Below are positions 4,627 through 29,034 of a stretch of DNA of 32,063 nucleotides, one piece after another (within the stretch, counting starts at the first letter, position 1; every line of letters starts with the position of its first letter). The stretch covers positions 1-32,063 of the forward strand of contig JAEOTQ010000191.1 of NCBI GenBank assembly GCA_016839785.1, given 5' to 3'. Made by a program: the position numbers and the translations under genes. This DNA comes from Candidatus Hodarchaeota archaeon (GTDB taxonomy: Archaea > Asgardarchaeota > Heimdallarchaeia > Hodarchaeales > Hodarchaeaceae). The notes beneath the pieces were generated by a model that saw nothing but the letters and a program-made list of their open reading frames with translations, was not told where the DNA came from and ran no database searches.

Positions 4627-4811
4627 TTTATGTGTAATTTAATTCTTCGTGATTGTACATTGAATAGAAATCTCTTGTATTTCTTGTTACTATGAATGTA
4701 ATTCACTTTTTATCTTCTTTTCAATGTCTAATATATACGAAAATTCTAAAAATACTCACTTATAATGAATTTTTACTTTCAACCATCATTTTATTAAACG
4801 GTGTTCATCAA

Positions 4812-5705
4812 ATGAAGATTCAAAATGTGAAAAAAATATGTGTTATAGGAGCAGGATTAATGGGTAATGGTATAGCTCAAGTCTGTGCTCAAGCTGGGTA
4901 TCAAGTTGCCATGAGGGACATTGAAGACCATTTTGTAGAGAAAGGTCTTTCTATGATTAATAAAAATTTATCACGTGGAGTCAAAAAAGGAAAAATGACT
5001 CAAGATCAAATGAACGAAATCCTCACAAGAATTAAAGGAACTACCGATTTGAAAGAAGCTACGGAAGGAGCTGATGTGGTCATTGAGGCTATCATTGAAA
5101 ATTTGGACTTAAAACGTAAAGTATTTGCAGAATTAGAAGAAATTTGCGATTCAAATGTAATTTTTGCTTCAAATACATCATCAATATCTATTACAGACAT
5201 GGCTGCAGCCACTAAACGTCCAAATAAGTTCATCGGTATGCATTTTTTCAACCCTGTGCCTGTGATGAGGTTGGTTGAAATAATTAAAGGATATGACACC
5301 TCAGATGAGACATATCAGTTCATTGATGAGCTTTCTCAAAAATTAGGGAAAGAGACTGTTCTTGTTAATGAAGCTCCTGGGTTCGCAGTAAATCGTCTCC
5401 TGTTACCATTCTTCCTTGAAGCAATTTTTACATTACAAGAAGGAGTAACAACGGTTGAGGATATGGATAAAGCAATAACTTTAGGTTTAAATCATCCTAT
5501 GGGTCCATTTACTTTGTTAGATTTTGTAGGTCTGGATACAACACTTTTTATAGCTGATTATTTCGTTACAGAATTTCAAGATTCTAAGTACCGTGTTCCC
5601 ACACTACTACGAAAAATGGTACGTGCAAATCATCTAGGGAGAAAAACAGGTAAAGGATTTTATGATTACTCTACTAATCCTCCTACACCTCGAAAATTCA
5701 TATAA
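4812..5705 (+). CDS. hbd: 3-hydroxybutyryl-CoA (3-hydroxyacyl-CoA) dehydrogenase
   Basis: VIGAGLMGNGIAQ Rossmann motif, ASNTSS, GMHFFNPVPVM catalytic His, HPMGPF, LGRKTGKGFY. Start set at ATG 4812 after a GGTG RBS; the ORF-track extension from 4692 is low-complexity. Confidence 0.9.
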   Translation: MKIQNVKKICVIGAGLMGNGIAQVCAQAGYQVAMRDIEDHFVEKGLSMINKNLSRGVKKGKMTQDQMNEILTRIKGTTDLKEATEGADVVIEAIIENLDLKRKVFAELEEICDSNVIFASNTSSISITDMAAATKRPNKFIGMHFFNPVPVMRLVEIIKGYDTSDETYQFIDELSQKLGKETVLVNEAPGFAVNRLLLPFFLEAIFTLQEGVTTVEDMDKAITLGLNHPMGPFTLLDFVGLDTTLFIADYFVTEFQDSKYRVPTLLRKMVRANHLGRKTGKGFYDYSTNPPTPRKFI

Positions 5706-5764: not shown

Positions 5765-6973
5765 TTAATTTTTAAGGACATTTATCACAATTGCAGCTGC
5801 GGAATCGCCTGCTGAACACCCTGCGAAAAGCCCATAACCTCCATTTTTTAAAGCTAATTCTTCAATAAGTTCAATGACTAATCGCATACCTGTTGGGGCT
5901 TGAGGATGCCCCCAAACGAGTGAAGACCCATAATTATTAATTGAATCAAGTGGAATACCCATTTCTCTACTAAAGTAGATATCATTGACAGTAAAGGGAT
6001 TATGAAGTTTAGTAGCACTAATGTCATCTACAGAAAGGTTAGCATATTTAAGCGCATTTTGTGCCGCAGGTACAGGTGCTGTTGGCATATAACCCTTCTT
6101 ACTCCGAGCTTGACTAAAAGATAGGACTTGGATTTCAATATCTTTGTTAAGAGATAATTCCTTTGCTTTTTCTTGAGTTGTCAAAACCAATCCACAATTC
6201 CCATCAGAAGGATGAGTTTGAGCACCATAAGTAACAGTTCCAGCCTTAAGAACAGGTTTTAGTCTTGCTAATCTCTCTGCTGTTGTTGTATGAACTCCTT
6301 CATCTTCTTCGACGTTTGCAATGATTCTCTTACCTGATTTAACTTCTACGGGGGTAATCATAAACCTTCGTAAGAATTCAGAATCATTTTTTAGCGCTTG
6401 AGCATACTGTTTATAGCGCAACAATACAACCTCTTCTTGGTCTTCACGAGTTATTCCAGCATCTCTAGCAACGTTTTCTGCTGTTTGAATCATAGGATTT
6501 TTGGCGTAGGGATCATAACCAAAATTGTCCCAGACCCAATTTTCCAGATCAGCTTTTCCTCCAGGAGCAAGAGGATTGGGATATAAAACCTGGGGACCAT
6601 TACTGGTACGATCACATGTTACAGTTAAAATGCAGTAATTGGGACTATTGCTGGTTTCTATTTCAGAGGCTGAATTTGCGATTACTCGAGCTGAGGTTGC
6701 ACATGCCTGAGCAATCATTGAACCCGTGATTGTAGGTGCACCAATAAGACCTGAAAGCCATGTTTGACCATAAAAGCTGTGTTTCTGTGGAATAGTTATC
6801 CCCAGATGAACTGAATTAAAGATTTCAGGAGGGATTTCGCATTTATTGAGAGCACGAGTCGTTATTTCAGCAGCAAATGTAATTGCATTTTGATTAGCAA
6901 AACTTCCCTGCCAGCGTACAAAGGGGGTACTCCAGTAGCATCCATATGGAATGAAGGTGTTTGAAAACTGCAT
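5765..6973 (-). CDS. Thiolase (acetyl-CoA C-acyltransferase), probably the 3-oxopimeloyl-CoA-type thiolase of the benzoyl-CoA pathway
   Basis: Catalytic Cys in QACATS, HNPF, NNYGSSLVWGHP, C-terminal GCSAG. Lies 9 bp downstream of oah on the same strand. Confidence 0.85.
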   Translation of the reverse strand: MQFSNTFIPYGCYWSTPFVRWQGSFANQNAITFAAEITTRALNKCEIPPEIFNSVHLGITIPQKHSFYGQTWLSGLIGAPTITGSMIAQACATSARVIANSASEIETSNSPNYCILTVTCDRTSNGPQVLYPNPLAPGGKADLENWVWDNFGYDPYAKNPMIQTAENVARDAGITREDQEEVVLLRYKQYAQALKNDSEFLRRFMITPVEVKSGKRIIANVEEDEGVHTTTAERLARLKPVLKAGTVTYGAQTHPSDGNCGLVLTTQEKAKELSLNKDIEIQVLSFSQARSKKGYMPTAPVPAAQNALKYANLSVDDISATKLHNPFTVNDIYFSREMGIPLDSINNYGSSLVWGHPQAPTGMRLVIELIEELALKNGGYGLFAGCSAGDSAAAIVINVLKN

Positions 6974-6982
6974 TTTGATTCC

Positions 6983-8086
6983 TCATTCATTAGTAGGTTT
7001 TGGTAGAACCATATCAATGAGCTCTTGATCAAATGGGTGAGCTTCAGCTAATAGTTGACGGTATTTAATGAAATCAATAACATCTTTTCCCGTTTGTTTT
7101 CTTTCATTAAAGGCTCTAAAACCAAGTAATGCCTCTGTGGTCATGTTAACAGATAGCCAATGACGATTAGCAAGCTTTGTTTGATCCCAAAAGAATTTTT
7201 TCTTCATTCGGATTCCATCGATAGATTTCATTAAACATCCCGGGAAAAGGTTTGCATAAGCCCAAATAGTTTCATCAATAGTTTTATCTAAAAAAGAAAG
7301 ATCAATTGTACAGCTTTTCATAAGTTGTCGTGCGTCTTTAAAGGCTTGACCGACAAGAAATTCACCGTAAATTATTTCCCCATCGTGAATATATTTATCA
7401 GTATGAACGGTAGGGTTTCTGATGAATTGGTCATCCTTTTTCAAGATTGGAACGACTTTTGAAATCATACCAAGATGTTTCATTTTGTAAGAACTCCATA
7501 ATTCACAAGAGACGCAATTCCACATAGCATCTTCAATTGAAAGCATCCAAGGAAGAAAATCTGTCGATCCACCATCTGGAGCAGAGCCATGACGAGGACC
7601 AGCTTGACCAAAAATTGCTGTATCTGCAGAGATTGTTATATCAGTAGCCATCCCAATTTCCTGTCCACCAGCCACGCGCATACCATTTGTTCGGCAAATA
7701 ACTGGTTTTTTACAATTTAATATCGCATCAACCATAGCGTTAAAGAGATCCATATAGAGGCCATATTCGTTAGGCTTACCAGAGTAATATTCAGCGTATT
7801 CTTTCGTATTTCCACCTGTACAGAAAGCTCTATCCCCTGCTCCTGTGAATACTACACTGACAACACTTCGATCCATTGAAGCTCTCGAGAAACCCGCAAT
7901 TACACCTTTTACCATTTGAGTAGTATAAGAATTTAGCTGGGCGGGATTATTAAGTATTATCCAAGCTGAATGGAGACCCTCAGCTGATTTTCTAGTTACA
8001 GGATTAACCAAGGGTCGAAGCTCATACGTAATACAAGGAGGTTCAGTTCCAAAAAATTCATCAGTCCAAAGATCATGGTTTTTCAT
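6983..8086 (-). CDS. oah: 6-oxocyclohex-1-ene-1-carbonyl-CoA hydrolase (ring-opening; Oah/BamA/BzdY)
   Basis: Diagnostic stretches AWIILNNPAQLNSYTT, AFCTGGNTKEYAEYY, NGMRVAGGQEIGMA and QAGPRHGSAPDGGSTDFLP. Confidence 0.93.
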   Translation of the reverse strand: MKNHDLWTDEFFGTEPPCITYELRPLVNPVTRKSAEGLHSAWIILNNPAQLNSYTTQMVKGVIAGFSRASMDRSVVSVVFTGAGDRAFCTGGNTKEYAEYYSGKPNEYGLYMDLFNAMVDAILNCKKPVICRTNGMRVAGGQEIGMATDITISADTAIFGQAGPRHGSAPDGGSTDFLPWMLSIEDAMWNCVSCELWSSYKMKHLGMISKVVPILKKDDQFIRNPTVHTDKYIHDGEIIYGEFLVGQAFKDARQLMKSCTIDLSFLDKTIDETIWAYANLFPGCLMKSIDGIRMKKKFFWDQTKLANRHWLSVNMTTEALLGFRAFNERKQTGKDVIDFIKYRQLLAEAHPFDQELIDMVLPKPTNE

Positions 8087-8270: not shown

Positions 8271-9470
8271 ATGATAGATTTTTCACTTGCAGAAGAACAA
8301 ATTATGCTCCGAGATAGCGTTAGAGATTTCACAGAACGTGAAATAGCCCCTAAAGTTAGCGACTATGATAAACAACAAAAAAGTCTTTATCCTGAAGTTC
8401 TTCCTAAAATGGGAGAGTTAGGTATACTTGGAGTATGTATACCTGAAAAATATGGTGGAGCAGGTTTTGATAATATCGCTCTTGCTCTTGTATGTGAAGA
8501 ATTAGAGCGAATTGATACCTCCTTAAGGGTAATTATGTCTGTTCATACTGCCTTGAACAGCTATACACTTTGGCAATGGGCAACGTCAGACCAGAAAGAA
8601 AAATATCTAATTCCACAAGCACAAGGAACAAAAATTGGTGCATTTGGTTTAACAGAGCCAGAGTGTGGTTCTGATGTTGCAAATTTACAAACACGAGCAG
8701 TCCGAGAAGGGGATGAATATATTTTAAACGGAGCAAAGCAATGGATTAGTCTTGTCGATGTAGCGGATAATTTTCTGATTTTTGCACGATTAGGAAAAGA
8801 AAAAGGTTACAAGAGTATTGTTGGATTTATTGTTGAAAAAAAATATCCAGGTGTCTCGACTAATTCTTTCCACGATAAATTAGGGATTAGAACAGGGGAT
8901 ACAGGTGAGATTATACTGCAGAATGTCAGAGTTCCAGCAGAGAATCTTCTTGGAAAAGAAACTGAAGGCTTTAAAATTGCTATGACTGCACTTGACAATG
9001 GCCGCTATACAGTTGCTGCTGGAGCTGTTGGTTCAATCAGAGCTAGTCTCGAAGCAGCAACAAAATATTCTCATGAAAGAAAAGCTTTCGGCCAAGAAAT
9101 TGGAAAATTACAATTAATTCAAGAACACATTGCATATATGCAAGCAGGATATGACCAGTCTCAGCTATTGGTATTTAAAGCAGGATGGGTAAGAAACCAA
9201 GGAATTCCAAGTACACGAGAAACAAGTATGGCAAAGTGGCAAGCTACAAATCATGCTTCTGATGCAGCCAATAGAGCGATCCAAATTCATGGAGCAATGG
9301 GATATAGTGGCGATTTCCCAGTAGAACGATCCTGGAGAAATGCACGTGCAAATACAATTCTAGAAGGGACAAATGAGATTCATAAACTAATTCAAGCTTC
9401 CTTCATACTTGGATATCGAAAGAAAGCAGAACTTCGATGCGAAATACCTCCATATAAATCAGGAGAATGA
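8271..9470 (+). CDS. Acyl-CoA dehydrogenase, candidate glutaryl-CoA dehydrogenase
   Basis: AFGLTEPECGSD, LNGAKQWIS, ERKAFGQEIG, IQIHGAMGYS, TILEGTNEI. The substrate is inferred from pathway context only. Confidence 0.85.
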   Translation: MIDFSLAEEQIMLRDSVRDFTEREIAPKVSDYDKQQKSLYPEVLPKMGELGILGVCIPEKYGGAGFDNIALALVCEELERIDTSLRVIMSVHTALNSYTLWQWATSDQKEKYLIPQAQGTKIGAFGLTEPECGSDVANLQTRAVREGDEYILNGAKQWISLVDVADNFLIFARLGKEKGYKSIVGFIVEKKYPGVSTNSFHDKLGIRTGDTGEIILQNVRVPAENLLGKETEGFKIAMTALDNGRYTVAAGAVGSIRASLEAATKYSHERKAFGQEIGKLQLIQEHIAYMQAGYDQSQLLVFKAGWVRNQGIPSTRETSMAKWQATNHASDAANRAIQIHGAMGYSGDFPVERSWRNARANTILEGTNEIHKLIQASFILGYRKKAELRCEIPPYKSGE

Positions 9471-9512: not shown

Positions 9513-10724
9513 TTACATCCTCAATCCACCATCTACTTGGAGGATAGATCCAGTCATATAGTCAGAATCAGAACTAGCTAAAAATACAGCAATCTTAGCT
9601 ACATCTACAGGATATCCAATTCGCATTTGTGGGATCTGAGCAATTGTTTGCTCCTTATAGACTGCTGGTGTACCTGCAGTCATTGCTGTATCAATATATC
9701 CTGGCATTATACAATTCACGTTAACTTTATAACGAGCTAGTTCTCTTGCTGCGGTCTTTGAAAGAGCAATGGTTCCCCATTTAGATGCTGCATACGCTGC
9801 TTGGCCAACATTACCATATTTTGCAGCTGTTGACGTGAAATTGATGATCTTTCCACCAAGAGGTCTTTTCTTCATAAAATGAGGAGCGATAGCACGGATA
9901 CAATTGAATGTACCAGTTAAATTGATATTGATAACTGAATTCCAGATATCATCAGTCATTTTTGCGATTAAAGCACTACGAGTAATACCAGCGTTGTTTA
10001 CAAGTATATCCACTCTTTGATAATTTTCTAATGCTTCCCTCACTAAACGATTGACCTCTTCAACATTTGAAACGTCACATGTAATCGCAATAGCCTCTCC
10101 TCCTAACTCCATAATCTCATTCACAAGAGAATCAATGTCTGATTTTGTCCTAGCTGCGACAACAACCTTTGCTCCTTCTCTTGCGTATTCCAAGGCAATT
10201 TCTCTACCAATCCCTTTCCCTGCTCCTGTCACAATAGCCACTTTATTCATTAATCTTTTTGCCTTAACTTTAAACTCTTCAGTCACAGCAAGTTCTTCAG
10301 AGGAGATTGTTATGTCTTTACCTCTTAGAACTCGATAAATCACTCTATCTCCCTCGATAACCTCTGGTTTTACCAGTACATCCTCACCAATCTTAAGTGG
10401 ATCAGTAACGTCATCTACCCAAGCTACTACTCTCCCACCTTCCTTTAGATCAACAACTGTTACTGTGTATGGAGCAAAACGTTCAAAACCTGCAGGAGGG
10501 ATATGGACTTCAGAAAATGACAAAACTTTACCTTTTCCTGAAAACTCTGAAGGTTCTATGAATTTATCTGTAAGACATTCTTTACAAGTTGCTCTAGGAG
10601 GATAATAGAGAGTTGAACATTGACTACACTTCGTTCCTTCTAGCCTTCCTTCTCTCAAAGCTTTCAAAAAGCGCTCACCAATCTTTGATTGGGAAATATA
10701 GTTCTTATAACCAAATTGTTTCAT
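9513..10724 (-). CDS. Fusion protein: DUF35 (Zn-ribbon + OB-fold) N-terminus and FabG-like short-chain dehydrogenase/reductase C-terminus
   Basis: N-terminal KCSQCSTLYYPPRATCKEC and GKVLSFSEVHIPPAGF..PYTVTVVDL. C-terminal VTGAGKGIG, NNAGI, S..YAASK and GSILQVDGG. One continuous ORF; ATG at 10724 follows an AGGTGA RBS that overlaps the thiolase stop codon. Confidence 0.9.
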   Translation of the reverse strand: MKQFGYKNYISQSKIGERFLKALREGRLEGTKCSQCSTLYYPPRATCKECLTDKFIEPSEFSGKGKVLSFSEVHIPPAGFERFAPYTVTVVDLKEGGRVVAWVDDVTDPLKIGEDVLVKPEVIEGDRVIYRVLRGKDITISSEELAVTEEFKVKAKRLMNKVAIVTGAGKGIGREIALEYAREGAKVVVAARTKSDIDSLVNEIMELGGEAIAITCDVSNVEEVNRLVREALENYQRVDILVNNAGITRSALIAKMTDDIWNSVININLTGTFNCIRAIAPHFMKKRPLGGKIINFTSTAAKYGNVGQAAYAASKWGTIALSKTAARELARYKVNVNCIMPGYIDTAMTAGTPAVYKEQTIAQIPQMRIGYPVDVAKIAVFLASSDSDYMTGSILQVDGGLRM

Positions 10725-10734
10725 TGTTTCATCT

Positions 10735-11877
10735 TCACCTCGAAAGAATGTGAATAAGGCAATATTGACCGTGTCCACCTATGTTATGTGCTAATCCAAT
10801 CTCTGCTCCATCGACTTGATTCTTTCCTGCTTCTCCACGAAGTTGTTTGACGATTCCATAAACCTGTGAACATCCAGTGGCTCCTATTGGATGTCCTTTT
10901 GCCTTTAAACCACCGTCAACGTTGATAGGAATCTTACCACCAAGATAAGCTTCCTCTACAAACTCTCCCCCTTTCCCTCGGTCTGTAAATCCTAAGTCCT
11001 CATAAGCCATAATTTCAGCAATAGTAAAACAGTCGTGAACTTCTGCAACATCTATATCACTTGGATTAACTTTAGCCTGAGCATATGCTATTTGTGAAGC
11101 CTCTACTGCACTAGATAACGTAGTTAGTTCTGGACGGGTTAACAATGAGAAAGGAGCGGTTGCTGCACCAAGACCCGAAAGCCAAATAGGTGTATCAGAG
11201 AGTTGTTTAGATTTTTCTTCATTTGCTAGAATAATTGCTGCAGAACCATCTGCATTGGCACAGCAATCAAAGAGATGTAGTGGAGAGGCTATAATTTGTG
11301 ATTCTAAGACTCGCTCAATTGTAATTTCCTTTTGAAACATTGCTAATGGGTTCATTGAACCATAATGATGATTTTTAACTGCTACTGAAGCAAGTTGTTC
11401 CGATGTTGTACCGTATTTCGCCATATGAGAGTTTGCATACATTGCATAATAATTAGCAAAAGTTGTCCCAAAAGGAGCTTCGAACTGAACATCACCACTT
11501 CGTCCCATGATCTTGAGGATCTCTGAAGTTGGATTTTCTAGCATTTTCTGTACACCCAGTACTAAGACTATTTCATGCATTCCAGCTGTAATTAAAGCGT
11601 ATGCAGTTCGCAGAGCTGCTGCAGAGCTACCACAAGCTGCTTCTGTAAGCCAAACGGGTTGTGGATTCAAACCAAGATATTCAGTGATCGGTCCAGCAAT
11701 ACTACGTTGAGTCATATAGACTGGTGATGCACCAATAATGGTTGCATCAATATCTTGACGACGAATTCCTGCGTCATTCAACGCTTCAACAAAGGGCTCG
11801 AATGCAAGTTCTTGGACAGTTACATCATCCCGTCTTCCAAATTTACTATGGCCAATTCCGATAATACCTGCTTTCAT
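10735..11877 (-). CDS. SCP-x/archaeal-type thiolase (acetyl-CoA C-acetyltransferase), DUF35 partner
   Basis: EAACGSS catalytic Cys, AEVHDCFTIAE, NVDGGLKAKGHPIGATG, LAHNIGG. Start at ATG 11877 (ORF track 11943). Confidence 0.9.
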   Translation of the reverse strand: MKAGIIGIGHSKFGRRDDVTVQELAFEPFVEALNDAGIRRQDIDATIIGASPVYMTQRSIAGPITEYLGLNPQPVWLTEAACGSSAAALRTAYALITAGMHEIVLVLGVQKMLENPTSEILKIMGRSGDVQFEAPFGTTFANYYAMYANSHMAKYGTTSEQLASVAVKNHHYGSMNPLAMFQKEITIERVLESQIIASPLHLFDCCANADGSAAIILANEEKSKQLSDTPIWLSGLGAATAPFSLLTRPELTTLSSAVEASQIAYAQAKVNPSDIDVAEVHDCFTIAEIMAYEDLGFTDRGKGGEFVEEAYLGGKIPINVDGGLKAKGHPIGATGCSQVYGIVKQLRGEAGKNQVDGAEIGLAHNIGGHGQYCLIHILSR

Positions 11878-12018: not shown

Positions 12019-13065
12019 TTACTTTTGGCATAAAATAACCGTTCGAACACCTTCGCCACGACGCATAACATCAAAGGCCTCATTTATTTCAGAAAGAGGA
12101 TACTTTGCAGTTACAAGTGGTTCAACCACAATTCGCTTGTTTTTAACTAGCTCAATGATTCTAGGATAATCTACTGTGCGACAACCTAGACTTCCCATAA
12201 GTTCCATCTCACGAAACATTACACGACCAATATCAAAGCCATCCCATCGTTTAGGAGAATAACCAACCGCAACCAATCGGCCACCAGTCCTTAAACTATT
12301 GAATGCTTGTTTAAAGGTAGCTGGATTGCCAATAGCCTCAAATGCAATGTCTGCACCCCCACCTGTAAGTTTTCGAATAGCTCCGACAATTCCACGATCA
12401 TCCATTTCTTTTGCTGATATTGTTTCCACAGCGCCTAATTTTTTGGCAATATCCAATTTTTCAGGTACAATATCGACAGCGATAGGTAAACCACCTGCTA
12501 CTTTAATATTTTGAACTAAATTCAAACCTATCCCACCACAACCGATCACAACAGTCCAATCTCCAGGTTTAACCTGTCCCCGATTTTTAACAGCATGATA
12601 TGGAGTAGAAATTGCATCAGCGATAATACATCCCTCTTCTAATGGAACTTCTGAAGGAAGATGGAAAATATCTTTAGCTGGAACCATAATTTGTTCCGCA
12701 AAACCACCATCAACATTGCTACCAAAGAAGATTTGCTTTGAACAAATATTCTCACGTCCAGTTCTGCACTGAAAACAATTTCCACAGGATATTACGGCAG
12801 GAATTAGGACATGATCACCTTGTTTAAATAGTTTAACATCACCACTTATTTCTTTGACTACCCCTGACATTTCATGTCCTAGAATTAAAGGCGGAGATTT
12901 CCCTGTTGGCACACCATGATCAAGAAATCCCAAATCAGTGTGACATACTCCGCATGCAGTAATATCAACAATTACTTGTCCTGTTACCCCATCAATATTT
13001 GGGGAGTCATAATCATCCACTACTTTTAATGGTTCTTTTACTTTTTCAAAGACAGCAGCTCTCAT
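12019..13065 (-). CDS. had: 6-hydroxycyclohex-1-ene-1-carbonyl-CoA dehydrogenase (Zn-dependent MDR; Had/BzdX/BamQ)
   Basis: CGVCHTDL..GV.T..PLILGHE, structural Zn motif CGNCFQCRTGRENIC, IADAISTPYHA, GSLGC. Directly downstream of dch. Confidence 0.85.
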   Translation of the reverse strand: MRAAVFEKVKEPLKVVDDYDSPNIDGVTGQVIVDITACGVCHTDLGFLDHGVPTGKSPPLILGHEMSGVVKEISGDVKLFKQGDHVLIPAVISCGNCFQCRTGRENICSKQIFFGSNVDGGFAEQIMVPAKDIFHLPSEVPLEEGCIIADAISTPYHAVKNRGQVKPGDWTVVIGCGGIGLNLVQNIKVAGGLPIAVDIVPEKLDIAKKLGAVETISAKEMDDRGIVGAIRKLTGGGADIAFEAIGNPATFKQAFNSLRTGGRLVAVGYSPKRWDGFDIGRVMFREMELMGSLGCRTVDYPRIIELVKNKRIVVEPLVTAKYPLSEINEAFDVMRRGEGVRTVILCQK

Positions 13066-13101
13066 ATTAACAACTTCCTGTATTGTATTCATTCAAATAA
13101 T

Positions 13102-13869
13102 CTAACGATTTTCCCATTTAGGAGCACGTTTCTCGATAAAAGCTTGTAAACCTTCATTTGCGTCATGTGTTTTCATGAGCTGATTAAGGTAAAGATCCTC
13201 TACTTCATCTAATTTCTTATCAAAATCAGAATCTATACTCATTTTGACTGCTTTTTTAGTGTATTGTAATACAACTTTGCTCAATTTAGTAAATCTGTCA
13301 ATAAATGCAGATACTTCTTGATCATAAGTTTCTAGTGGGAAAACATGATTAACAAGGCCTATTCTATGTGATTCAATAGCATTGATGACTTCCCCCTGTA
13401 ATATAAGTTCAAATGCTTTCTTTTCTCCGAGGATAAAAGGAAATATAACAGCTGATACAGGAGGGAATACTCCTACCTTTATTTCTGGATTTCCAAATTT
13501 AGACTTTTCAGAAGCCAGAATGATATCACAAAACGCAGCTACCTCACAACCTCCTCCTAAAGCTGCTCCTTTAGTGCAAGCTACAGTAGGAATTTTCATT
13601 CGATTTAATCTTTTAAACATTCCATGAAATACTTCTATCATTTTTTTAGCTGTTTCTCCCATATGCTCCCCTACATCTACTCCTGCGGAAAATGATTTGC
13701 CATTGTGACTCAAAACAACTACTTTTAGAGTATCGTCATTTAAAAATTCGTCAAGTGCTTCATTAATCTGTTCCATCATTGCAATATTTAAAATATTCAA
13801 CGAACCGTTGTTAAAAATAATTTTTCCAATATTCCCTTCTTTTTCGATTATAATTAATTTATTGTTCAA
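13102..13869 (-). CDS. dch: Cyclohexa-1,5-diene-1-carbonyl-CoA hydratase (Dch/BzdW/BamR)
   Basis: Crotonase fold with LNILNIAMMEQIN, FSAGVDVGEH, ALGGGCE, PEIKVGVFPP, LYLNQLMKTHDANEGL. Probable TTG start at 13869 after GGAG (ORF track 13890). Confidence 0.85.
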   Translation of the reverse strand: MNNKLIIIEKEGNIGKIIFNNGSLNILNIAMMEQINEALDEFLNDDTLKVVVLSHNGKSFSAGVDVGEHMGETAKKMIEVFHGMFKRLNRMKIPTVACTKGAALGGGCEVAAFCDIILASEKSKFGNPEIKVGVFPPVSAVIFPFILGEKKAFELILQGEVINAIESHRIGLVNHVFPLETYDQEVSAFIDRFTKLSKVVLQYTKKAVKMSIDSDFDKKLDEVEDLYLNQLMKTHDANEGLQAFIEKRAPKWENR

Positions 13870-13905
13870 TTTTCTTCTCCACATCTTCATTTTTTCTCAT
13901 TATAG

Positions 13906-14203: not shown

Positions 14204-14280
14204 AGATAGATTATTAGAAAGTTTAAAGCATATTGACTGGTGAAAAATTTGTATATAAAATAAATAAATGTAGAGTAATA

Positions 14281-15831
14281 ATGATGAACTCAACGAATGA
14301 AATTGTTGACCAAATTAGACAATTCCTCTCAAATTGGCAAGTTTTAACTGACATTGAAGATAGGTATGTATATTCATTTGAGAAGATATATTCTAAAGCA
14401 GCCTATCCATTACCAGATATTGTGGTGAGGATTAATCGACCTGAAGATTCTATAAAATTTTCAGAGTGGATAAAAGATCAGGATCTCACCTTAATTACTA
14501 GAAATTTACGTGGTTCTTGGACTGAAAATGATCATAAAAAAGTAACCATCCTCCTAGATGATATCGTAAGACCTGAAATGAGCAGGATATCAGAGGATCC
14601 AAAGAATTTTAGATATTTGTTTAAGCACAGGATGAATAAAAATGCACATAGTATCTATAATAACATTTCAATGGCTATACATTTTATGATGTCTGAAGAG
14701 AGCTTAAGCACATGTTTACAACGCGATGTTTGGGGAGGATATTGTACTATCACTCCCTCTTATAAGGGAATTGAGACATGGTCTTCTAAAGGAAGATTTC
14801 TCCTAATTAGAGGTTTAACAAGAAGAGATTTAAACCTTTCACAGAAGGTCATTGATGTAATATATGCCTGTAGTAAGTGTGGTAATTGTTTTGGAGAATG
14901 TTTTGAACAAGTAGACTTTCACAAGGCAATTACTCAAATCAGGCAAATTATTGCAGAAAAGAAATTAGCTCCAGAAGTATTTCAAGCGACTGCGAGGAAT
15001 ATCACAACTACTGGAGACCCTGCAGCTACCTCCATTGAAAAGCGTTTTGCATGGTTAAAGAAGGTATCTGATATGAAATTATCGGATAAACCAGACATTC
15101 TCTATTGGGCTGGATGTATGGTCTCATATCGTACTCCTAAATCAGCATTTGCATTTTATAATATTTTAAAAAAGTATCAGGCTGATTTTACAGTTTTGAA
15201 AAAGAACGAAGGATGCTGTGGGTATGTATTATTTTCTTCAGGCTTATGGAAAGAAGCGAAAAAGAATGCAAAAACTATAATCGAAAAAATAGACAAATTA
15301 GGAATTAAACAACTAATTACCCCATGTTCAGGATGTTACTACACATTCACGAAGCTATTTCCAGAGATAGCCGACATTCATCTACCTTGTGAAATTCTCC
15401 ATTCGTCACAATTCATTGAAAATAAATTGAAAAGTGAACAGTTTAGTCTTAAACCAATAAATTCAAGAATCACATATCACGATCCATGTTCACTTGGTAG
15501 ACACTGTGGGGTTTATGACCCCCCTCGTAACATACTGAAAATGATCCCAAATCTCAAAATAACAGAAATGGATCTCAATAGATCTCAAGCACGTTGTTGT
15601 GGAGGGGGAGGTGGATTGTGGAACTACAATCATCAAATTAGTCTAGAAGCGGCATCAACTAGATTGTATGAAGATTTCTTACCATTGAATACCGATATAT
15701 TGACAACAGCTTGTCCACTTTGTCAAATGAACTTCCGAATCACAGCAAAAAGACTTTCTATCCCACTTAAAGTTAATGACATCACAGAAGTAATCGATTC
15801 TGTTTTGATCAGGACTCCTGAAAAGCATTAA
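14281..15831 (+). CDS. Fe-S oxidoreductase with two CCG domains (HdrD/GlcF-like)
   Basis: CSKCGNCFGEC, YWAGC, EGCCG, TPCSGC, YHDPCSLGR, CCGGGGG, TACPLC. The N-terminus resembles the start of FAD-linked oxidases. ATG at 14281 (ORF track TTG 14233). Confidence 0.85.
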   Translation: MMNSTNEIVDQIRQFLSNWQVLTDIEDRYVYSFEKIYSKAAYPLPDIVVRINRPEDSIKFSEWIKDQDLTLITRNLRGSWTENDHKKVTILLDDIVRPEMSRISEDPKNFRYLFKHRMNKNAHSIYNNISMAIHFMMSEESLSTCLQRDVWGGYCTITPSYKGIETWSSKGRFLLIRGLTRRDLNLSQKVIDVIYACSKCGNCFGECFEQVDFHKAITQIRQIIAEKKLAPEVFQATARNITTTGDPAATSIEKRFAWLKKVSDMKLSDKPDILYWAGCMVSYRTPKSAFAFYNILKKYQADFTVLKKNEGCCGYVLFSSGLWKEAKKNAKTIIEKIDKLGIKQLITPCSGCYYTFTKLFPEIADIHLPCEILHSSQFIENKLKSEQFSLKPINSRITYHDPCSLGRHCGVYDPPRNILKMIPNLKITEMDLNRSQARCCGGGGGLWNYNHQISLEAASTRLYEDFLPLNTDILTTACPLCQMNFRITAKRLSIPLKVNDITEVIDSVLIRTPEKH

Positions 15832-16328
15832 GTTGCTGATAGCAATTTCTGCATCAATTCTGAAAACTTCTGGGCTGCAGCTTTACGTTTCAGGAAATTC
15901 ATTGTTGTTGCCTCAATAAATTGAAGTGCTTTGGGTTCACAGTTTTTTACACATAATGGATCTCCATCACAAAGATCGCATTTCTTAATTTGTCCATCTA
16001 TACCTAATATAATCCCACCAAAAGGACAATGAGTAACACACAGCTTACAACCAACACATAAATCATAGTTTATTAGCATAGCTCCTGTATTTTCATCTCT
16101 ATATACGGCTCCCATTGGACAAACAGTCTCACAAATTGGATCTTCACACTGTTGGCACACCATCGGTATGTACACTCCTGAACTTTCCCATTTGATCACT
16201 TGTATTCGAGCATGGGCAGGATTACAAACTTTTTCGTGTTGAAGAGAACACACTGTTTCACATATACGACATCCAGAACATTTTTCAGGATTAACAAATA
16301 GGAATTTTTTCATCAGGGTGTTCTCCAT
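15828..16328 (-). CDS. Polyferredoxin-type 4x[4Fe-4S] electron-transfer subunit of aldehyde oxidoreductase (DmsB/CooF-like)
   Basis: CSGCRICETVC, CQQCEDPICETVCP, CVGCKLCVTHCP, KCDLCDGDPLCVKNC. Starts 1 bp after the aor stop. Confidence 0.9.
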   Translation of the reverse strand: MENTLMKKFLFVNPEKCSGCRICETVCSLQHEKVCNPAHARIQVIKWESSGVYIPMVCQQCEDPICETVCPMGAVYRDENTGAMLINYDLCVGCKLCVTHCPFGGIILGIDGQIKKCDLCDGDPLCVKNCEPKALQFIEATTMNFLKRKAAAQKFSELMQKLLSAT

Positions 16329-16329
16329 T

Positions 16330-18222
16330 TTAGGTCTTTAAAGGTTGTTTGTTTTCTATTCCAAGTTCTCTAAGAGTTTCATCACGAGGAATACCGTTGT
16401 TATCCCATCCATGTAAGGAATAATATTCCTCGATCAACGTATTGAATTTATCTCTATCGATTGTTTTTCCTTTAACAATCGGAAATCCTAATTTTGTTGG
16501 TTCTTTAAAGAAACGTTCGGGTAGTTTATCGTCCTTTCTGGAAAATCCTTCACGATTATTGAACATCCGCTCCACAGTTAGAACCCTTTCACCAATCTCC
16601 ATAATTTGAGGTTTTGAAAGCTTCATACCAGATGTTAAATTAATAAGTTTTGAAAATTCTTCGAATTTTGGAGCATTTACAGCACAAAAAACGGTCTGAA
16701 ACTTACATATACCAATTGAATCTGTGATTGCATATAAAAGTTCTTGCCACCAAACCATACGACTTTTTCCCTTATATGACGTATAATTTGAGGACACGGG
16801 TGCACCATATATCTCTTCTAGGAGTTCTTCTGGGAGTCCATACAGATCTATCGCAGGTCTGCTTCTTAAATGATCTGCCCCTCGCGTTGAAGTTGCGATC
16901 CCTAGTGCTAAACTGGGTGTTGGACGTTCATCGGAATGTAAATTACTCATCCCTTTAATTTGCATAGCATAATACTCTGATTCCTTCCCAATCTTTGCTA
17001 TTGCTGGTAAGAATCCATCAGCAAGTAAATTTCCTAAATAACCTTCTCTTTTGCTAATTTTTTTGATGAGTTCATAAACTGCTTCTTCATTTCCCCACGA
17101 TAGATCAAATCCATCAATCATTTTTTCTGTAAGGAGCTCTTTCTCATAGAGTTCCATAATCCAGGCGATAATGCCCCCAATTTCTAATGTGTCAATCCCA
17201 TATTTGTTCACAAGATGATTGGCAACCAGAACAGTGTCCATTTTCCTACAATCAACCATGGTTCCAAAAGCACCGAGTGAAGTATATTCTGGCCCTTCGC
17301 CAAAGATAGGAGCATATGGTCCTTCTTTTAACACATATCGATGACGACAATGGACACTACAACCATAGCAGCCAGACATACCAATAGTGTATTCATCCAT
17401 TACTTCAGGTTCTAAATTTTCACCATCCTCTAGTAAATTAAGTTGAAAGTTACGTGTTCGAATCAAGCCAGTGGTATTTGTGTTGCTGTAGATTATGAGT
17501 GTCCCCCATTTTGATTGTGCTCGTGCCCATCGTGATCCTGTGATCATATTGTTCATTTCAGAACAATAATCTAATAATTGGTCAGGATATGGAAATTCTA
17601 GATCCATTGTTCCACGAGCTGCAACGGCTTTCAAATTTTTTGACCCCATCACGCATCCCATCCCTGTACGGCCAGCAGCATTCTTCATCCCCGTTCTTAC
17701 ATTTGCATATCGAACAAGATTTTCTCCTGCCTCACCAATAACTAAACTCTTGATCTGTTCGTCATTGTGATCTGATCGGATTTGATCTTGAGTTTCAAAA
17801 GTATCTTTCCCCCATAGATGGGATGCGTCACGGATTTCCACTTCTCCATTATTTATCCAGATATAACTTGGCTTTGCAGCTTTCCCAGTAATCATCAAAT
17901 GATCAAAACCAGCAAATCTTAATTCAGGAGCAAAAAACCCACCAATGTTTGAATCACCTACGGCACCTGTTAAGGGTGATTTTGCTGCAATATCGCACCT
18001 ACCTGCACCAAGAGCAGGAATTCCAGTAAGTAAGCCAGTACCTATGAGTAAAACGTTTTCAGGCCCTAGGGGATCAATACCAGGAGCAATTTGATGATAC
18101 AAATGATACATGTTAATGCCTCTCCCTCCAAGAAATTGATTCCGAAGTGATTTGGAGATTGTTTTAATTTTGAATTTACTTGATGTCAAATCAATATAAG
18201 CAATTTTCCTATTCCAAACCAT
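16330..18222 (-). CDS. aor: Tungsten-dependent aldehyde:ferredoxin oxidoreductase family catalytic subunit
   Basis: LGGRG, KSPLTG, AAGRTGMGCVMGSKNLKA, CYGCSVHC [4Fe-4S], GPEY, GIDT, RGADH, DSIGIC, YYSLHGWDNNGIP. ATG at 18222. Confidence 0.92.
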   Translation of the reverse strand: MVWNRKIAYIDLTSSKFKIKTISKSLRNQFLGGRGINMYHLYHQIAPGIDPLGPENVLLIGTGLLTGIPALGAGRCDIAAKSPLTGAVGDSNIGGFFAPELRFAGFDHLMITGKAAKPSYIWINNGEVEIRDASHLWGKDTFETQDQIRSDHNDEQIKSLVIGEAGENLVRYANVRTGMKNAAGRTGMGCVMGSKNLKAVAARGTMDLEFPYPDQLLDYCSEMNNMITGSRWARAQSKWGTLIIYSNTNTTGLIRTRNFQLNLLEDGENLEPEVMDEYTIGMSGCYGCSVHCRHRYVLKEGPYAPIFGEGPEYTSLGAFGTMVDCRKMDTVLVANHLVNKYGIDTLEIGGIIAWIMELYEKELLTEKMIDGFDLSWGNEEAVYELIKKISKREGYLGNLLADGFLPAIAKIGKESEYYAMQIKGMSNLHSDERPTPSLALGIATSTRGADHLRSRPAIDLYGLPEELLEEIYGAPVSSNYTSYKGKSRMVWWQELLYAITDSIGICKFQTVFCAVNAPKFEEFSKLINLTSGMKLSKPQIMEIGERVLTVERMFNNREGFSRKDDKLPERFFKEPTKLGFPIVKGKTIDRDKFNTLIEEYYSLHGWDNNGIPRDETLRELGIENKQPLKT

Positions 18223-18240
18223 AGTCAAAGCCTCTAACAA

Positions 18241-18387
18241 TTATTTTGCTAATCCACGAATCTTAGGCTGGTCTGGGTTTGGCCAAGAGATTCTATATTT
18301 GGTATTACATTGAGGACATTCAGCTTGTTCAGTATTTAGTTGAACTTGAAAACGGTTCAAACAATTTAAGCATCTAACTTCATTCAT
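18241..18387 (-). CDS. 48-aa zinc-ribbon (CxxC...CxxC) protein, not in the ORF track
   Basis: Hand translation: MNEVRCLNCLNRFQVQLNTEQAECPQCNTKYRISWPNPDQPKIRGLAK*. It has an AGGTG RBS and fills the gap between the MoaD-like gene and aor. Confidence 0.8.
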   Translation of the reverse strand: MNEVRCLNCLNRFQVQLNTEQAECPQCNTKYRISWPNPDQPKIRGLAK

Positions 18388-18402
18388 AACAATAACACCT
18401 TT

Positions 18403-18687
18403 TTAACCCCCACCTACAGGAAGACTGAAAATTAAGACATCCTTATCTTTGATCTTTTCATCAATTTCTCTAATACCTTTTCCATTCAACATCACAAGGA
18501 TATCATTAGAAATTTTATTTGTTTGAGGATTTACAATATTAAAAAAGTCATTTCCGTACTTTTTTGCTAATTCTGCCAAAATTTCTCCAAATGTACAATC
18601 TTCATTAATCTGTTCAACGATTTTTCGTTTTTTAGTAATTTCTCTGAAAGTTGCTTGAAATAGTATTTCTATTTTGCCTGTTATCAT
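18403..18687 (-). CDS. MoaD/ThiS/SAMP-family sulfur carrier (ubiquitin-like fold)
   Basis: FQATFREIT N-terminus, VMLNGK, C-terminal LPVGGG di-glycine. First gene of the aor operon. Confidence 0.88.
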   Translation of the reverse strand: MITGKIEILFQATFREITKKRKIVEQINEDCTFGEILAELAKKYGNDFFNIVNPQTNKISNDILVMLNGKGIREIDEKIKDKDVLIFSLPVGGG

Positions 18688-18826
18688 AATTTTCAATCTC
18701 AAAGCAATAATCTTCAAATGGAATATTGGCATTCTTCAGATTTTTCATATAAAAAATATTTCTGAGCTAAACTGAATTATCAATATATAAGTAGTATCAC
18801 ATAGTGAATCCAATTCAGCCACAAGG

Positions 18827-19586: not shown

Positions 19587-19670
19587 TGAACAGAAGTAAG
19601 GTAAAACTCTCAAAGAATGCGAAAAGTAAGACTATGAAAGAAATCTAATTTGATGAAAGGAGTTTATATC

Positions 19671-20819
19671 ATGGTAACTGTGCAGATGGAAGAAAAAGGA
19701 ATATTTGATCAGTTTAAGGATTGGTATACAAATCGTCATGAATACGCAAAAGCTTGGAAAGAAAAGGGTGGTAAGGTAATGGGTTATTTCTGTACTTACG
19801 TACCAGAAGAAATACTCTATGCTGCCAATATACTTCCAGTTCGGATTCTAGGTAGTCATGAACCTCAAGATGTAACAGAACCCCATATTTTTGCAATGTT
19901 CTGTCCATTTTGTCGTGACTGCCTTGCACAAGGATTGAAAGGTCGTTATGATTATCTCGATGGAATTATGATTGCTCAAAGTTGTCTTCATATTAGACAA
20001 ACATACACAAGTTGGGATCTTCATATCCCAACGGATTATAGCTATTATTTGCCTCATCCAATGCATGTACAAAGTCCTCAAGCTACCCCTTACTTGCGAG
20101 AGGAGTTGATTCAATTCAAAAAATCTGTTGAAGATTGGATAGATAAACCTATTACTAATTATGATTTAAAAAGGGGAATCGAAATAATGAATGCAAATCG
20201 ACGTTTAATGAATCAAGTGTATGAGCTTAGAAAAAAACGCAATCCACCTGTTACAGGTTTAGAAGCCATGTATATGGTTGTATCAAGTCAAATGACAGAT
20301 AAACATGAACATAACCGTGAACTAGAATCACTCCTTCAAAAGCTCTCCACACGTGATATAGGTGACCCTGGAGAGAGATTAATGATTATAGGGTCTGAAG
20401 ATGATGATACAGAGTTTTTAGCAATGGTCGAAGATCTAGGTGCAACTTTTGTGACTGATGACCATTGTACTGGTACCCGCTATTTCCAAGAAGAGGTAAA
20501 TCCATCTGAAGACTTATTGAATGCAATAGCAGAACGATATGTGAAACGAGTACCCTGTCCGAGTAAAGATTGGCCGAAACGCACTAGACTTGATCACATT
20601 ATACGAATGAGCAAAGAATATGATGTACAAGGAGCAATATTGATTCAACAGAAATTTTGTGATCCACACGAATTAGATACTCCCGCAATAAAAGAAGAAT
20701 TAGAAAAAAATGGAATTGCAACTTTATTTCTGGAATTTGATGTTACTGTACCAATTGGCCAGTTTAAAACCCGTGTGGAGGCGTTTCTTGAAATAATGCG
20801 AGAGGAGGATTTGTTTTAG
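19671..20819 (+). CDS. bzdN: Benzoyl-CoA reductase, bzd-type, subunit N
   Basis: [76 protein letters not shown] at 19671 after AAGGAG. Confidence 0.93.
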
Positions 20820-20830
20820 GAGGAATTAAG

Positions 20831-22144
20831 ATGAGTACTACAAAATATCCTAGTGAGAGATTAAAAAGCTGGGGAAAAGCGAAAACACTTCGTGAGAATT
20901 ATTACAGAGACTTCGCAGAAGCTCATGATAAAGGAGGAATTCGTTGGGCTGGAGGTGCTTGGTCTTTCGATGCTATTCCTGCTGGTTTGGGTGAAGATGT
21001 TTGGTGCTTAACAGGGGAACCTTATGGAGCAACCGTAGCATTTAATAAAGAATTAGCTTTGGAATGTCAAGAAGCTATTGAAACTAAAGGTTTCGCGAGA
21101 GACCTTTGTTCATACATGCGTAATTATTGGGGGTCAATCATTCTTAATAAATACGCCTGGCCACAATACTCGGAGGAATTCCCTAAACCTGATTTTATGT
21201 GGCAAGATCATATATGCTGTTCACATGCAAAATGGTATCAGGTTGCTAGTGACCTTGAAGGAGGGATTCCAACGTTTAGCATTGATGTATCAGTAGGTCC
21301 TTATGAAGAATTAACTGAAAGCAGACTAAATTATATTGTTGGTCAAATGCATGATGGCATAAAATGGCTAGAAAAAACAACAAGTAGAGATTACAACGAT
21401 GAACTCCTGATTAAAGCAGTTCAAAATGAATTTCGTACATGTCATTATTGGGCTGCGATTTGTGAGCTAAATAAAACAATACCTGCACCCTTAGATGAAA
21501 AATCTATGTATGCATTATACGTCTTAGGCACACTAAGAAAGTCTTCACAGTGGACAGCAGATTATTATGAGAAAGAACTATATCCTGAGATTAAAGATCG
21601 AGTGAAGCGAGGAATAGCTGCTGTTGAAAACGAGCAATGTCGTATTATGACCGATACACAACCTCCATGGGCATTCCTAAAAGTTTTCCGTTATTTAGAA
21701 AAATATGGTTGTGTTTCAATAGGAAGTCTGTATACCTTCTCACTCATTGGTTTATGGGAAGATAAAGAAGATGGCACATGGGGACCAAGATCCATTCCCG
21801 AGATTGAAATAACAAATCGAGATGAAGCTTTGCGAGCTCTAGCTGAATGGAATTTAAGCAAACCAGAATGGCAGCACTTCTATCATCCAAAATTGAAATC
21901 TGAAATGATGATTCGGATTGCACGTGAATGGAAACTTGATGGAGTTCTTCTGCACTTTAATAGAGGTTGTGAAGGCTTAAGTCTTGGTATCGCAGAAAAT
22001 CGTTTAGCGATTCAGAAAGCTGGATTTCCAGTAATGCCATTTGAAGGTAATATGGGGGATGAAAGAGAATTCGACCTAACTAGAACAATGGCACGAATAG
22101 ACGCATTCATGGAAAGTCTTGGAATGAAAAAATTAGTTGATTAA
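20831..22144 (+). CDS. bzdO: Benzoyl-CoA reductase, bzd-type, subunit O
   Basis: [75 protein letters not shown]. Confidence 0.93.
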
Positions 22145-22159
22145 CAACGGTGAATTCTT

Positions 22160-22948: not shown

Positions 22949-22952
22949 AAAC

Positions 22953-28057: not shown

Positions 28058-28201
28058 TACCTCTGAGGTGAGTAGTTAACATCAAGTACAAGTACTTTGA
28101 TTGAAAATTAAACGATGTATTCATTTAATAATTATTTCATGAAGACTCTTGAGCTTTATGATATTGATTACTTCTTATTGAAAACAGAAAACTAACCTTT
28201 T

Positions 28202-28993: not shown

Positions 28994-29034
28994 AGATTAT
29001 TCTCCATTTTGGTCATTATACTTGTATTACTCTT

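Follow-up and report, generated by a model that had tools for sequence, protein, structure and literature searches.

A DUF35–short-chain dehydrogenase fusion as a candidate 3-hydroxypimeloyl-CoA dehydrogenase tethered to an SCP2-type thiolase in Asgard archaea

The stretch from position 1 to 32,063 of contig JAEOTQ010000191.1 of a Candidatus Hodarchaeota archaeon (assembly GCA_016839785.1), called the window below, is a benzoyl-coenzyme A (CoA) degradation island. It encodes a protein in which a DUF35 zinc-ribbon/OB module is joined to a short-chain dehydrogenase/reductase (SDR), directly downstream of an SCP2-type thiolase gene. This raises the question of which reaction is catalyzed by a dehydrogenase carrying such a module, and together with which partner. 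Our preferred answer, to which we assign a probability of about 0.6, is that the fusion is a 3-hydroxypimeloyl-CoA dehydrogenase tethered to a 3-oxopimeloyl-CoA thiolase in the lower benzoyl-CoA pathway.

The longest minus-strand open reading frame at this position (9513–10778) is open for 421 residues from a GTG at 10778. The probable start of the fusion is the in-frame ATG at 10724–10722, which agrees with the relatives and defines a gene at 9513–10724 (minus strand; 403 residues plus stop) encoding a protein of the same length as most of them. The initial annotation had described a single reading frame joining a CxxC-x10-CxxC zinc ribbon/OB fold to a complete FabG-like SDR with GKGIG and VAART motifs. 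Both Pfam and a direct reading of the translation, which holds CSQC-x10-CKEC, TGAGKGIG, and VVVAART, bear this out. The N terminus consists of a rubredoxin-like zinc ribbon (zf-ChsH2, PF12172; residues 21–54, minus strand 10563–10664; C33, C36, C47, and C50; E = 1.7e-10, 40.9 bits against a gathering score of 23.2), followed by the DUF35 OB fold (OB_ChsH2_C, PF01796; residues 60–116, minus strand 10377–10547; E = 2.1e-15, 56.8 against 27.1 bits), which a whole-genome scan found in the same place. A linker of ~25 residues (approximately residues 135–160, minus strand 10245–10322), recognizable by low predicted local distance difference test (pLDDT) values and unconserved alignment columns, leads to a FabG-like classical SDR domain (residues 161–403, minus strand 9516–10244). 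Here, adh_short (PF00106) matches residues 161–351 with an E value of 2.5e-63, and the adh_short_C2 match runs on to residue 401. All Pfam domain scores of the fusion and of the thiolase exceed the curated cut-offs.

The only FabG-like NCBIfam model that the fusion passes is the subfamily NF009466 (231 against 222 bits). Since it misses the cut-offs of the FabG equivalog models (NF004198, 273.9 against 296 bits; TIGR01830, 268.8 against 297.75 bits), the name FabG that it would receive from databases is not secured. An AlphaFold model built on an alignment of relatives has two folded domains (mean pLDDT 79.5; predicted template modeling score 0.61), and linker residues 140–154 have a pLDDT below 50. 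The SDR domain superposes on FabG structures, with 4nbu_A as the top Foldseek match (E = 1e-27; template modeling score 0.90 on the target). We rejected 2et6, a yeast (3R)-hydroxyacyl-CoA dehydrogenase, as the nearest structure, since it reaches the top PDB rank only through its two SDR domains (118 and 140 bits each) and is no closer than the FabGs.

That the fusion is an artefact of assembly or gene calling, or an inactive pseudo-enzyme, seems to us close to inconceivable, and we found no point in favor of it. The same DUF35 plus SDR architecture of ~400 residues is present in 66 of the best 120 database clusters retrieved with the whole protein, which come from several sources. The junction near 10250–10330, which the initial annotation had singled out as the place where a stop or frameshift might separate the domains, is spanned without an indel by contigs of three marine-sediment metagenome runs from two studies, one of which may be the window's own source. 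Classical SDRs are recognized by the motifs TGxxxGxG and NNAG and by a catalytic Asn-Ser-Tyr-Lys tetrad. The fusion has the corresponding residues T166–G173, N243-N244-A245-G246, N268, S298, Y311, and K315, all of which are invariant in the alignment. In particular, across 27 fused relatives with identities down to 53%, T166–G173 (TGxGxGIG), A191-R192-T193, and the catalytic N268/S298/Y311/K315 never vary, and neither do the ribbon cysteines C33, C36, and C47. Residues ~131–157 vary in both length and sequence in the same set. The window protein has all four zinc-ribbon cysteines, the fourth of which is shifted or lost in a subgroup of relatives. Many relatives show it shifted within residues 47–51 (CTAKC or CTNQC), and a subgroup that includes proteins labeled Kariarchaeaceae reads CTKND and hence keeps only three ribbon cysteines.

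All named fused relatives are from Asgard archaea, and they are annotated "3-oxoacyl-ACP reductase FabG" (ACP, acyl carrier protein) or "glucose 1-dehydrogenase." Both names are probably wrong in organisms in which the relevant partner is a CoA-dependent thiolase. Two unfused SDRs, P0072 and P0073, resemble the fused members and are 61–63% identical to the SDR domain of the window protein; the fusion has therefore been gained or lost within the family. When P0072 was used as a query over 400 Asgard genomes, fused genes were the only matches.

The gene upstream encodes the SCP2-type thiolase (10735–11877, minus strand; 380 residues), which starts with MKAGIIG at 11877 as in its relatives. It matches Thiolase_C_1 (PF22691; E = 1.6e-45, 154.8 bits) and Thiolase_N (E = 5.6e-18), and passes NCBIfam NF004720 with 480 bits against a cut-off of 420. 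C82, H281-D282-C283-F284, and G328-H329-P330 are invariant in all 12 relatives compared. A catalytic Cys, HDxF, and GHx are the motifs given for active acetyl-CoA acetyltransferase (ACAT) units in the available text of PMC12960953. The solved structures nearest to this thiolase are those of archaeal acetoacetyl-CoA thiolases (7yvy, 1.7e-74, then 6esq, 2.8e-69). At the junction of the two genes (10725–10740, minus strand), the thiolase stop codon TGA (10737–10735) lies inside AGGTGA and is followed by 10 nucleotides up to the ATG of the fusion. The overlap of a ribosome-binding-site-like motif with the thiolase stop, as originally described, is thus present, and in all 14 junctions compared, the region of the thiolase stop holds a motif of the GGTGA or GGTG type, 4–11 nucleotides 5' of the fusion start.

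Does the DUF35 module dock on this thiolase? The DUF35 part matches the DUF35 chains of several solved complexes (6esq/6et9, 1.5e-18; 6ok1, 3.5e-10; 7pxp, 1.5e-7; 5m3k, 1.2e-6), and the thiolase matches thiolase-fold chains of the same entries. In a predicted complex of the thiolase with fusion residues 1–135, the interaction prediction score from aligned errors (ipSAE) was 0.89, compared to 0.00 for the best of three controls, a mark reached by 58 of 80 solved complexes and by 2 of 110 mismatched pairs; since similar complexes have been solved, this pass may reflect memory, and it shows likeness rather than binding. Three runs share at least 95% of contacts, with a partner pLDDT of at least 91. 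Almost half of the invariant residues of the DUF35 part (10 of 21: G5, Y9, S13, P42, S69, P77, G79, Y86, G97, and R98) lie in the predicted interface. The thiolase and fusion genes are adjacent in all 13 loci examined besides the window. The original proposal that DUF35 tethers a reductase or dehydrogenase to the thiolase is therefore supported in silico, by predicted docking and by adjacency. By prediction and by analogy, the DUF35 module of the fusion most likely docks on the neighboring SCP2-type thiolase. The window's genome has three DUF35 matches, each directly downstream of an SCP2-type thiolase gene. The two further pairs lie at C100:31606–33147 and C105:4404–6407, and in the latter the DUF35 protein is unusually long (220 residues) and the thiolase has 442 residues.

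The thiolase-fusion pair belongs to an operon on the minus strand that starts with a dch-like enoyl-CoA hydratase gene (13102–13890; best NCBIfam model TIGR03189, 185.8 bits, below the cut-off of 292.5) and continues with a had-like Zn-dependent dehydrogenase gene (12019–13092; best model TIGR03201, 224.6 bits, below the cut-off of 338.65). The gene for the ring hydrolase Oah is found nearby (6983–8086, minus strand; TIGR03200, 557.5 bits against a cut-off of 464.45). An acyl-CoA dehydrogenase gene convergent with the fusion gene (8271–9470, plus strand; AcrC 363 and Acd 344.7 bits, both below cut-offs) encodes a candidate glutaryl-CoA dehydrogenase. Farther along are the genes of a bzd-type class I benzoyl-CoA reductase with N, O, P-like, and Q subunits (19650–23834, plus strand), for which the scores against cut-offs are 484.9/453.8 bits for BzdN, 690.6/448.6 for BzdO, and 421.8/380.2 for BzdQ. 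Directly after bzdNOPQ comes the gene of an 841-residue protein with 2Fe-2S, 4Fe-4S, and GltD-like NAD(P)H-binding oxidoreductase domains (24239–26764, plus strand), a candidate for the ferredoxin-regenerating partner of the reductase. An enzyme of this kind was proposed for ferredoxin regeneration in Asgard bcr clusters in the accessible part of Zhang et al. 2021 (PMC8163825).

This arrangement is conserved. In 12 related loci from named Asgard metagenome-assembled genomes (MAGs), with full-length relatives at 71–84% identity, the had-thiolase-fusion order and strand are kept without exception. The dch gene is upstream in 10 of them, and the remaining two end before it could appear. The genes for Oah, a class II thiolase, a 3-hydroxybutyryl-CoA dehydrogenase (3HCDH), and a ligase follow the pair in 4 of the 12. 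Five genomes in which the locus lacks an adjacent oah were checked; all of them have the gene elsewhere, and bzdO exceeds its cut-off in four of the five. Degradative neighbors accompany the pair in L004 and L008, two of these loci: both have acyl-CoA dehydrogenases, and L004 has an electron transfer flavoprotein as well. Some relatives have extra genes between dch and had (L002 and L005, and a nitroreductase-family gene in L008 at 6012–7641); had-thiolase-fusion itself is never interrupted.

The fusion also co-occurs with Oah. A survey of 400 Asgard species genomes (full-length matches with E ≤ 1e-90 for the fusion; E ≤ 1e-100 for Oah) found the fusion in 15. Besides the window's genome, these comprise 13 of the 21 further species of its genus and G402, a genome that belongs to another family. 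Oah was detected in 16 genomes, which are all 15 fusion-bearing ones plus G069. Even in G402, where the pair is not on the contigs of oah and bzdO, both of these genes occur in the genome. Although 14 of the 15 species genomes fall in one genus, the records of the fusion-bearing MAGs carry the labels Hod-, Heimdall-, Thor-, Hermod-, or Promethearchaeota, and depositor naming for these Asgard MAGs seems inconsistent.

The lower pathway proceeds through Dch, Had, and Oah, then a 3-hydroxypimeloyl-CoA dehydrogenase (which we take to be EC 1.1.1.259), a 3-oxopimeloyl-CoA thiolase, and glutaryl-CoA dehydrogenase. We tentatively assign the pair to the dehydrogenase and thiolase steps because these are the only pathway steps without another dedicated candidate in the dch-had operon, and because the types of chemistry fit. 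For the fusion, the assignment as a candidate 3-hydroxypimeloyl-CoA dehydrogenase rests on the dch/had operon and on the co-occurrence with Oah. Direct observations are the fusion, this co-occurrence, the conservation of the operon, and the fact that the catalytic motifs of both enzymes are intact. In the mechanism that we infer, including the physical binding (from the prediction and solved analogues), the substrate, the direction, and the acceptor, the N-terminal zinc-ribbon/OB module would bind the SCP2-type thiolase, and the flexible ~25-residue linker would keep the FabG-like SDR next to it. The SDR would oxidize 3-hydroxypimeloyl-CoA, the product of Oah, to 3-oxopimeloyl-CoA, which the tethered thiolase would at once split into glutaryl-CoA and acetyl-CoA. 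Thiolysis would thereby pull the unfavorable oxidation of 3-hydroxypimeloyl-CoA forward, an argument that rests on the general thermodynamics of beta-oxidation. NADP+ may be the acceptor, which would not conflict with degradation, and, more speculatively, the NADPH formed might feed the GltD-like iron-sulfur oxidoreductase encoded after bzdNOPQ.

Several findings weigh against this assignment. The SDR looks reductive or biosynthetic, with FabG and acetoacetyl-CoA reductases as its best matches. It has Ala-Arg after strand 2, where the NAD-type relative 4nbu has Asp, and a Lys in the glycine motif; in SDRs, these features mark a preference for NADP(H), which is a reasonable reading of the sequence here. 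A 3HCDH gene (4692–5705, plus strand) and a class II thiolase gene (5765–6973, minus strand; TIGR01930, 189 bits, below the cut-off of 240.55) in the same cluster could in principle provide both steps. Only 4 of 12 loci have oah within the 10 kb retrieved around the relatives. The pair of G402 stands alone among unrelated genes (MtrH, PIN, and TldD), with oah and bzdO on other contigs, and G069 (70% complete) has Oah without the fusion, a query with the window's thiolase having found no SCP2-type thiolase there. Finally, the co-occurrence amounts to two lineages, namely one genus in which the genes are mostly linked and one other genome, not to 15 independent observations.

Could the pair instead work in the condensing direction, toward the ACP-independent acyl-chain synthesis that the initial annotation also offered? 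It might carry out the initial two reactions of the archaeal fatty-acid synthase in covalent form, with a ketothiolase/DUF35 and an NADPH-dependent, (R)-specific ketoacyl-CoA reductase, or be a PhaA/PhaB-like route to (R)-3-hydroxyacyl-CoA; in both versions, reduction would pull an unfavorable Claisen condensation. This would suit the FabG-like SDR with its NADP(H)-type signature, the proximity of the thiolase to archaeal acetoacetyl-CoA thiolases, and the isolation of the pair in G402, away from aromatic genes; three parts of the archaeal fatty-acid synthase, a ketothiolase, DUF35, and an SDR with an NADP(H)-type signature, are all present here. We nevertheless consider it unlikely. The pair is embedded with dch-had genes in all 12 related loci, and the fusion is missing from 385 of the 400 Asgard genomes, while every genome that has it also has Oah. 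The benzoyl-CoA reductase of the window is of the ATP-dependent bzd type, which argues for degradative flow. No MaoC dehydratase or medium-chain dehydrogenase/reductase-type enoyl reductase is found in any Pfam-annotated neighborhood (the window, L004, L008, and L031), the whole genome not having been searched for them. The available text of a preprint on the Sulfolobus acidocaldarius synthase (Schmerling et al. 2024; bioRxiv 10.1101/2024.07.05.601840) bears on both sides. There, a ketothiolase/DUF35 binds a separate SDR reductase, which is NADPH-dependent and (R)-specific, and the complex drives condensation; at the same time, multiple thiolase/DUF35 pairs are reported in 67% of 62 Asgard genomes, with which the narrow range of the fusion contrasts. 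It is just as doubtful that the pair is a reversible NADP(H)-linked C–C bond module that also condenses in these Heimdall/Hod-type Asgard archaea. If it did, the fusion would serve, within a single polypeptide, as a "Rosetta stone" for the archaeal thiolase/DUF35/ketoreductase fatty-acid synthase. ACP-independent acyl-chain extension (for example, glutaryl-CoA plus acetyl-CoA, or acetyl-CoA plus acyl-CoA) would then be hard-wired in Asgard archaea, which the same preprint, as far as its text was available, names as the archaeal group that eukaryotes are thought to come from.

A slightly less likely alternative leaves 3-hydroxypimeloyl-CoA to the 3HCDH and the class II thiolase, and has the pair act on a different CoA ester from the anaerobic degradation of aromatic or alicyclic compounds, such as an (R)-hydroxyacyl-CoA or a pimeloyl-type intermediate that is substituted or methylated. 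The presence of a second dehydrogenase/thiolase set in the cluster speaks for it, and so does the precedent of BbsCD and BbsAB, in which an SDR and then a DUF35/SCP2-thiolase act on bulky aromatic succinyl-CoA esters; the score of BbsD is 164.7 bits, and both the BbsA and BbsB chains of 7pxp are matched. Against it, the pair is linked most tightly to dch-had, with 3HCDH and thiolase II adjacent in only 4 of 12 loci, and the 3HCDH passes a model for 3-hydroxybutyryl-CoA dehydrogenase (NF004474, 421 against 408 bits). The Pfam annotation of the window showed neither bss nor bbs genes, and the thiolase reaches only 186 bits with the BbsB equivalog NF053628, whose cut-off is 750. The initial annotation had considered the release of either benzoyl-CoA or glutaryl-CoA from a 3-hydroxyacyl-CoA. 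The BbsB score disfavors the benzoyl-CoA option, in the manner of BbsAB, and the operon and the co-occurrence with Oah favor the glutaryl-CoA option.

How does the proposed 3-hydroxypimeloyl-CoA dehydrogenase/thiolase pair compare with known systems? In its architecture, it resembles the Shy-Sal pair of Comamonas and the ChsH1-ChsH2-Ltp2 complex of actinobacteria, both from steroid side-chain degradation, in which DUF35 is fused to the enzyme that precedes a thiolase-fold C–C cleavage. According to the part of PMC11321319 that was available, Shy consists of an N-terminal DUF35 and a MaoC domain, is encoded downstream of the thiolase-like Sal, binds Sal via DUF35, and catalyzes the preceding step. 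The layout is the same in the Asgard pair, with DUF35 at the N terminus and the gene downstream of that of the thiolase-fold partner. In contrast, the fused enzyme is a MaoC hydratase and its partner a retro-aldolase in the steroid systems, whereas the Asgard fused enzyme is an SDR and its partner keeps the thiolase Cys, HDCF, and GHP motifs.

The archaeal thiolase/HMG-CoA synthase/DUF35 complex (6esq/6et9; HMG, 3-hydroxy-3-methylglutaryl) is the closest solved relative of the DUF35 half and the second closest of the thiolase half. There too, the thiolase is coupled to the enzyme that follows through a DUF35 scaffold, but this enzyme is HMG-CoA synthase and the DUF35 protein is not fused. In Pseudomonas, HMGS and DUF35 occur in fused form, as stated in the consulted portion of PMC12960953. 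Together with ChsH2 and Shy, such characterized fused forms make the earlier description of DUF35 proteins as normally stand-alone scaffolds incomplete. The BbsAB and BbsCD proteins of the anaerobic toluene pathway (7pxp and 7pcs) share the order of an SDR step followed by a DUF35/SCP2-thiolase step, and all three proteins are homologous to the Asgard ones; unlike in the fusion, they are separate and act on another substrate, and the BbsB equivalog score is far below its cut-off.

The S. acidocaldarius fatty-acid synthase, as described in the portion of Schmerling et al. at hand, is similar in that an SCP2-type thiolase with DUF35 recruits an SDR for the thiolase's 3-oxo/3-hydroxyacyl-CoA; each system comes from an archaeon and has an SDR of NADP(H) type. 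There, the SDR is separate and bound noncovalently, and the system is biosynthetic, with a MaoC dehydratase and an enoyl reductase, whereas the Asgard SDR is fused to DUF35, its gene belongs to an operon for benzoyl-CoA degradation, and neither a dehydratase nor an enoyl reductase is encoded in the neighborhood. No mention of a DUF35-SDR fusion was found in the available text of that preprint.

Functional counterparts are the proposed AabC and AabD of Aromatoleum sp. CIB, whose genes were proposed for both steps from similarity, induction, and the lag-phase phenotype of a mutant, according to the accessible part of PMC9795900. The two proposed reactions, 3-hydroxypimelyl-CoA dehydrogenase and 3-oxopimelyl-CoA thiolase downstream of a bzd pathway, are the same as those we favor for the Asgard pair. 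As judged from the description in that part of the paper, AabC and AabD differ from the Asgard pair in that they are bacterial and that two distinct genes encode them, within a beta-oxidation cluster that lies apart from dch and had; no DUF35 is mentioned there. The available text of Price et al. 2022 (PMC9007349), the source of a curated pathway resource, calls the 3-hydroxypimeloyl-CoA dehydrogenase of the anaerobic benzoate pathway unknown.

How widespread are DUF35-SDR fusions? We found no paper describing one in the open-access literature or in bioRxiv. A word-based search with residues 1–150 returned 51 such proteins among 392 candidates, all 51 from the same fused family and none from any other. 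A HMMER scan with residues 1–135 over 1.84 billion representatives gave 3194 matches, and there was no independent DUF35-SDR fusion among the best 150 of the 3194, which were inspected. Four of these 150 are longer than 210 residues: a member of the Asgard family (P0045), two proteins with tandem DUF35 domains, and one that combines DUF35 with phage-sheath domains. The last, P0266 (376 residues), has an N-terminal DUF35 zinc ribbon/OB followed by phage tail-sheath domains and is either a gene-calling chimera or an odd fusion. In a search for a triple thiolase-DUF35-SDR fusion, none of 472 longer candidates gave a score, which is weak evidence. The initial annotation had left open whether the architecture is already common and characterized; no characterized example turned up in the literature, and the family is narrow, with 14 of its 15 Asgard species genomes in a single genus.

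It is already established that DUF35 acts as a scaffold on SCP2-type thiolases and that it can be fused to a MaoC hydratase or to HMG-CoA synthase. The tethering principle is likewise known, from ChsH2-Ltp2, Shy-Sal, HMGS-DUF35, and the Sulfolobus thiolase/DUF35/reductase, the noncovalent recruitment of an SDR being a preprint report. The range of DUF35-tethered enzymes, so far MaoC hydratases and HMG-CoA synthase, is here extended to an SDR. For Sulfolobus, DUF35 is reported to recruit a ketoacyl/hydroxyacyl-CoA SDR to the thiolase, and the gene fusion is independent genetic evidence for such recruitment to a thiolase in archaea. The fusion also offers a concrete candidate for the unassigned 3-hydroxypimeloyl-CoA dehydrogenase step and the thiolase that follows, at least in archaea. 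Since the family is narrow and the principle known, the finding is useful rather than surprising.

The rest of the window has further genes, which include those for a CoA ligase and a crotonase. Downstream of the GltD-like gene, at 27110–30261 on the minus strand, there is a second HGD-D-type subunit (HadB-like, 209 bits, below cut-off) with its own activase-type ATPase and a ketopantoate-reductase-like gene. This set resembles a 2-hydroxyacyl-CoA dehydratase-type system, with only one large subunit seen. Between the dch operon and bzdN, at 15828–18732 on the minus strand, lie an aldehyde:ferredoxin oxidoreductase (AOR)-family gene (206 bits with the AOR equivalog, cut-off 868), a 4Fe-4S protein gene, and a ThiS/MoaD-like gene, relatives of which are adjacent to one another in loci L001 and L011. 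Divergent from dch, at 14233–15831 on the plus strand, is the gene of a CCG-domain (HdrD/GlpC/TfrB-like) iron-sulfur protein. It is kept beside dch in 9 of the 12 related loci at 47–71% identity, is truncated in L010, and may encode an electron outlet for the acyl-CoA dehydrogenase.

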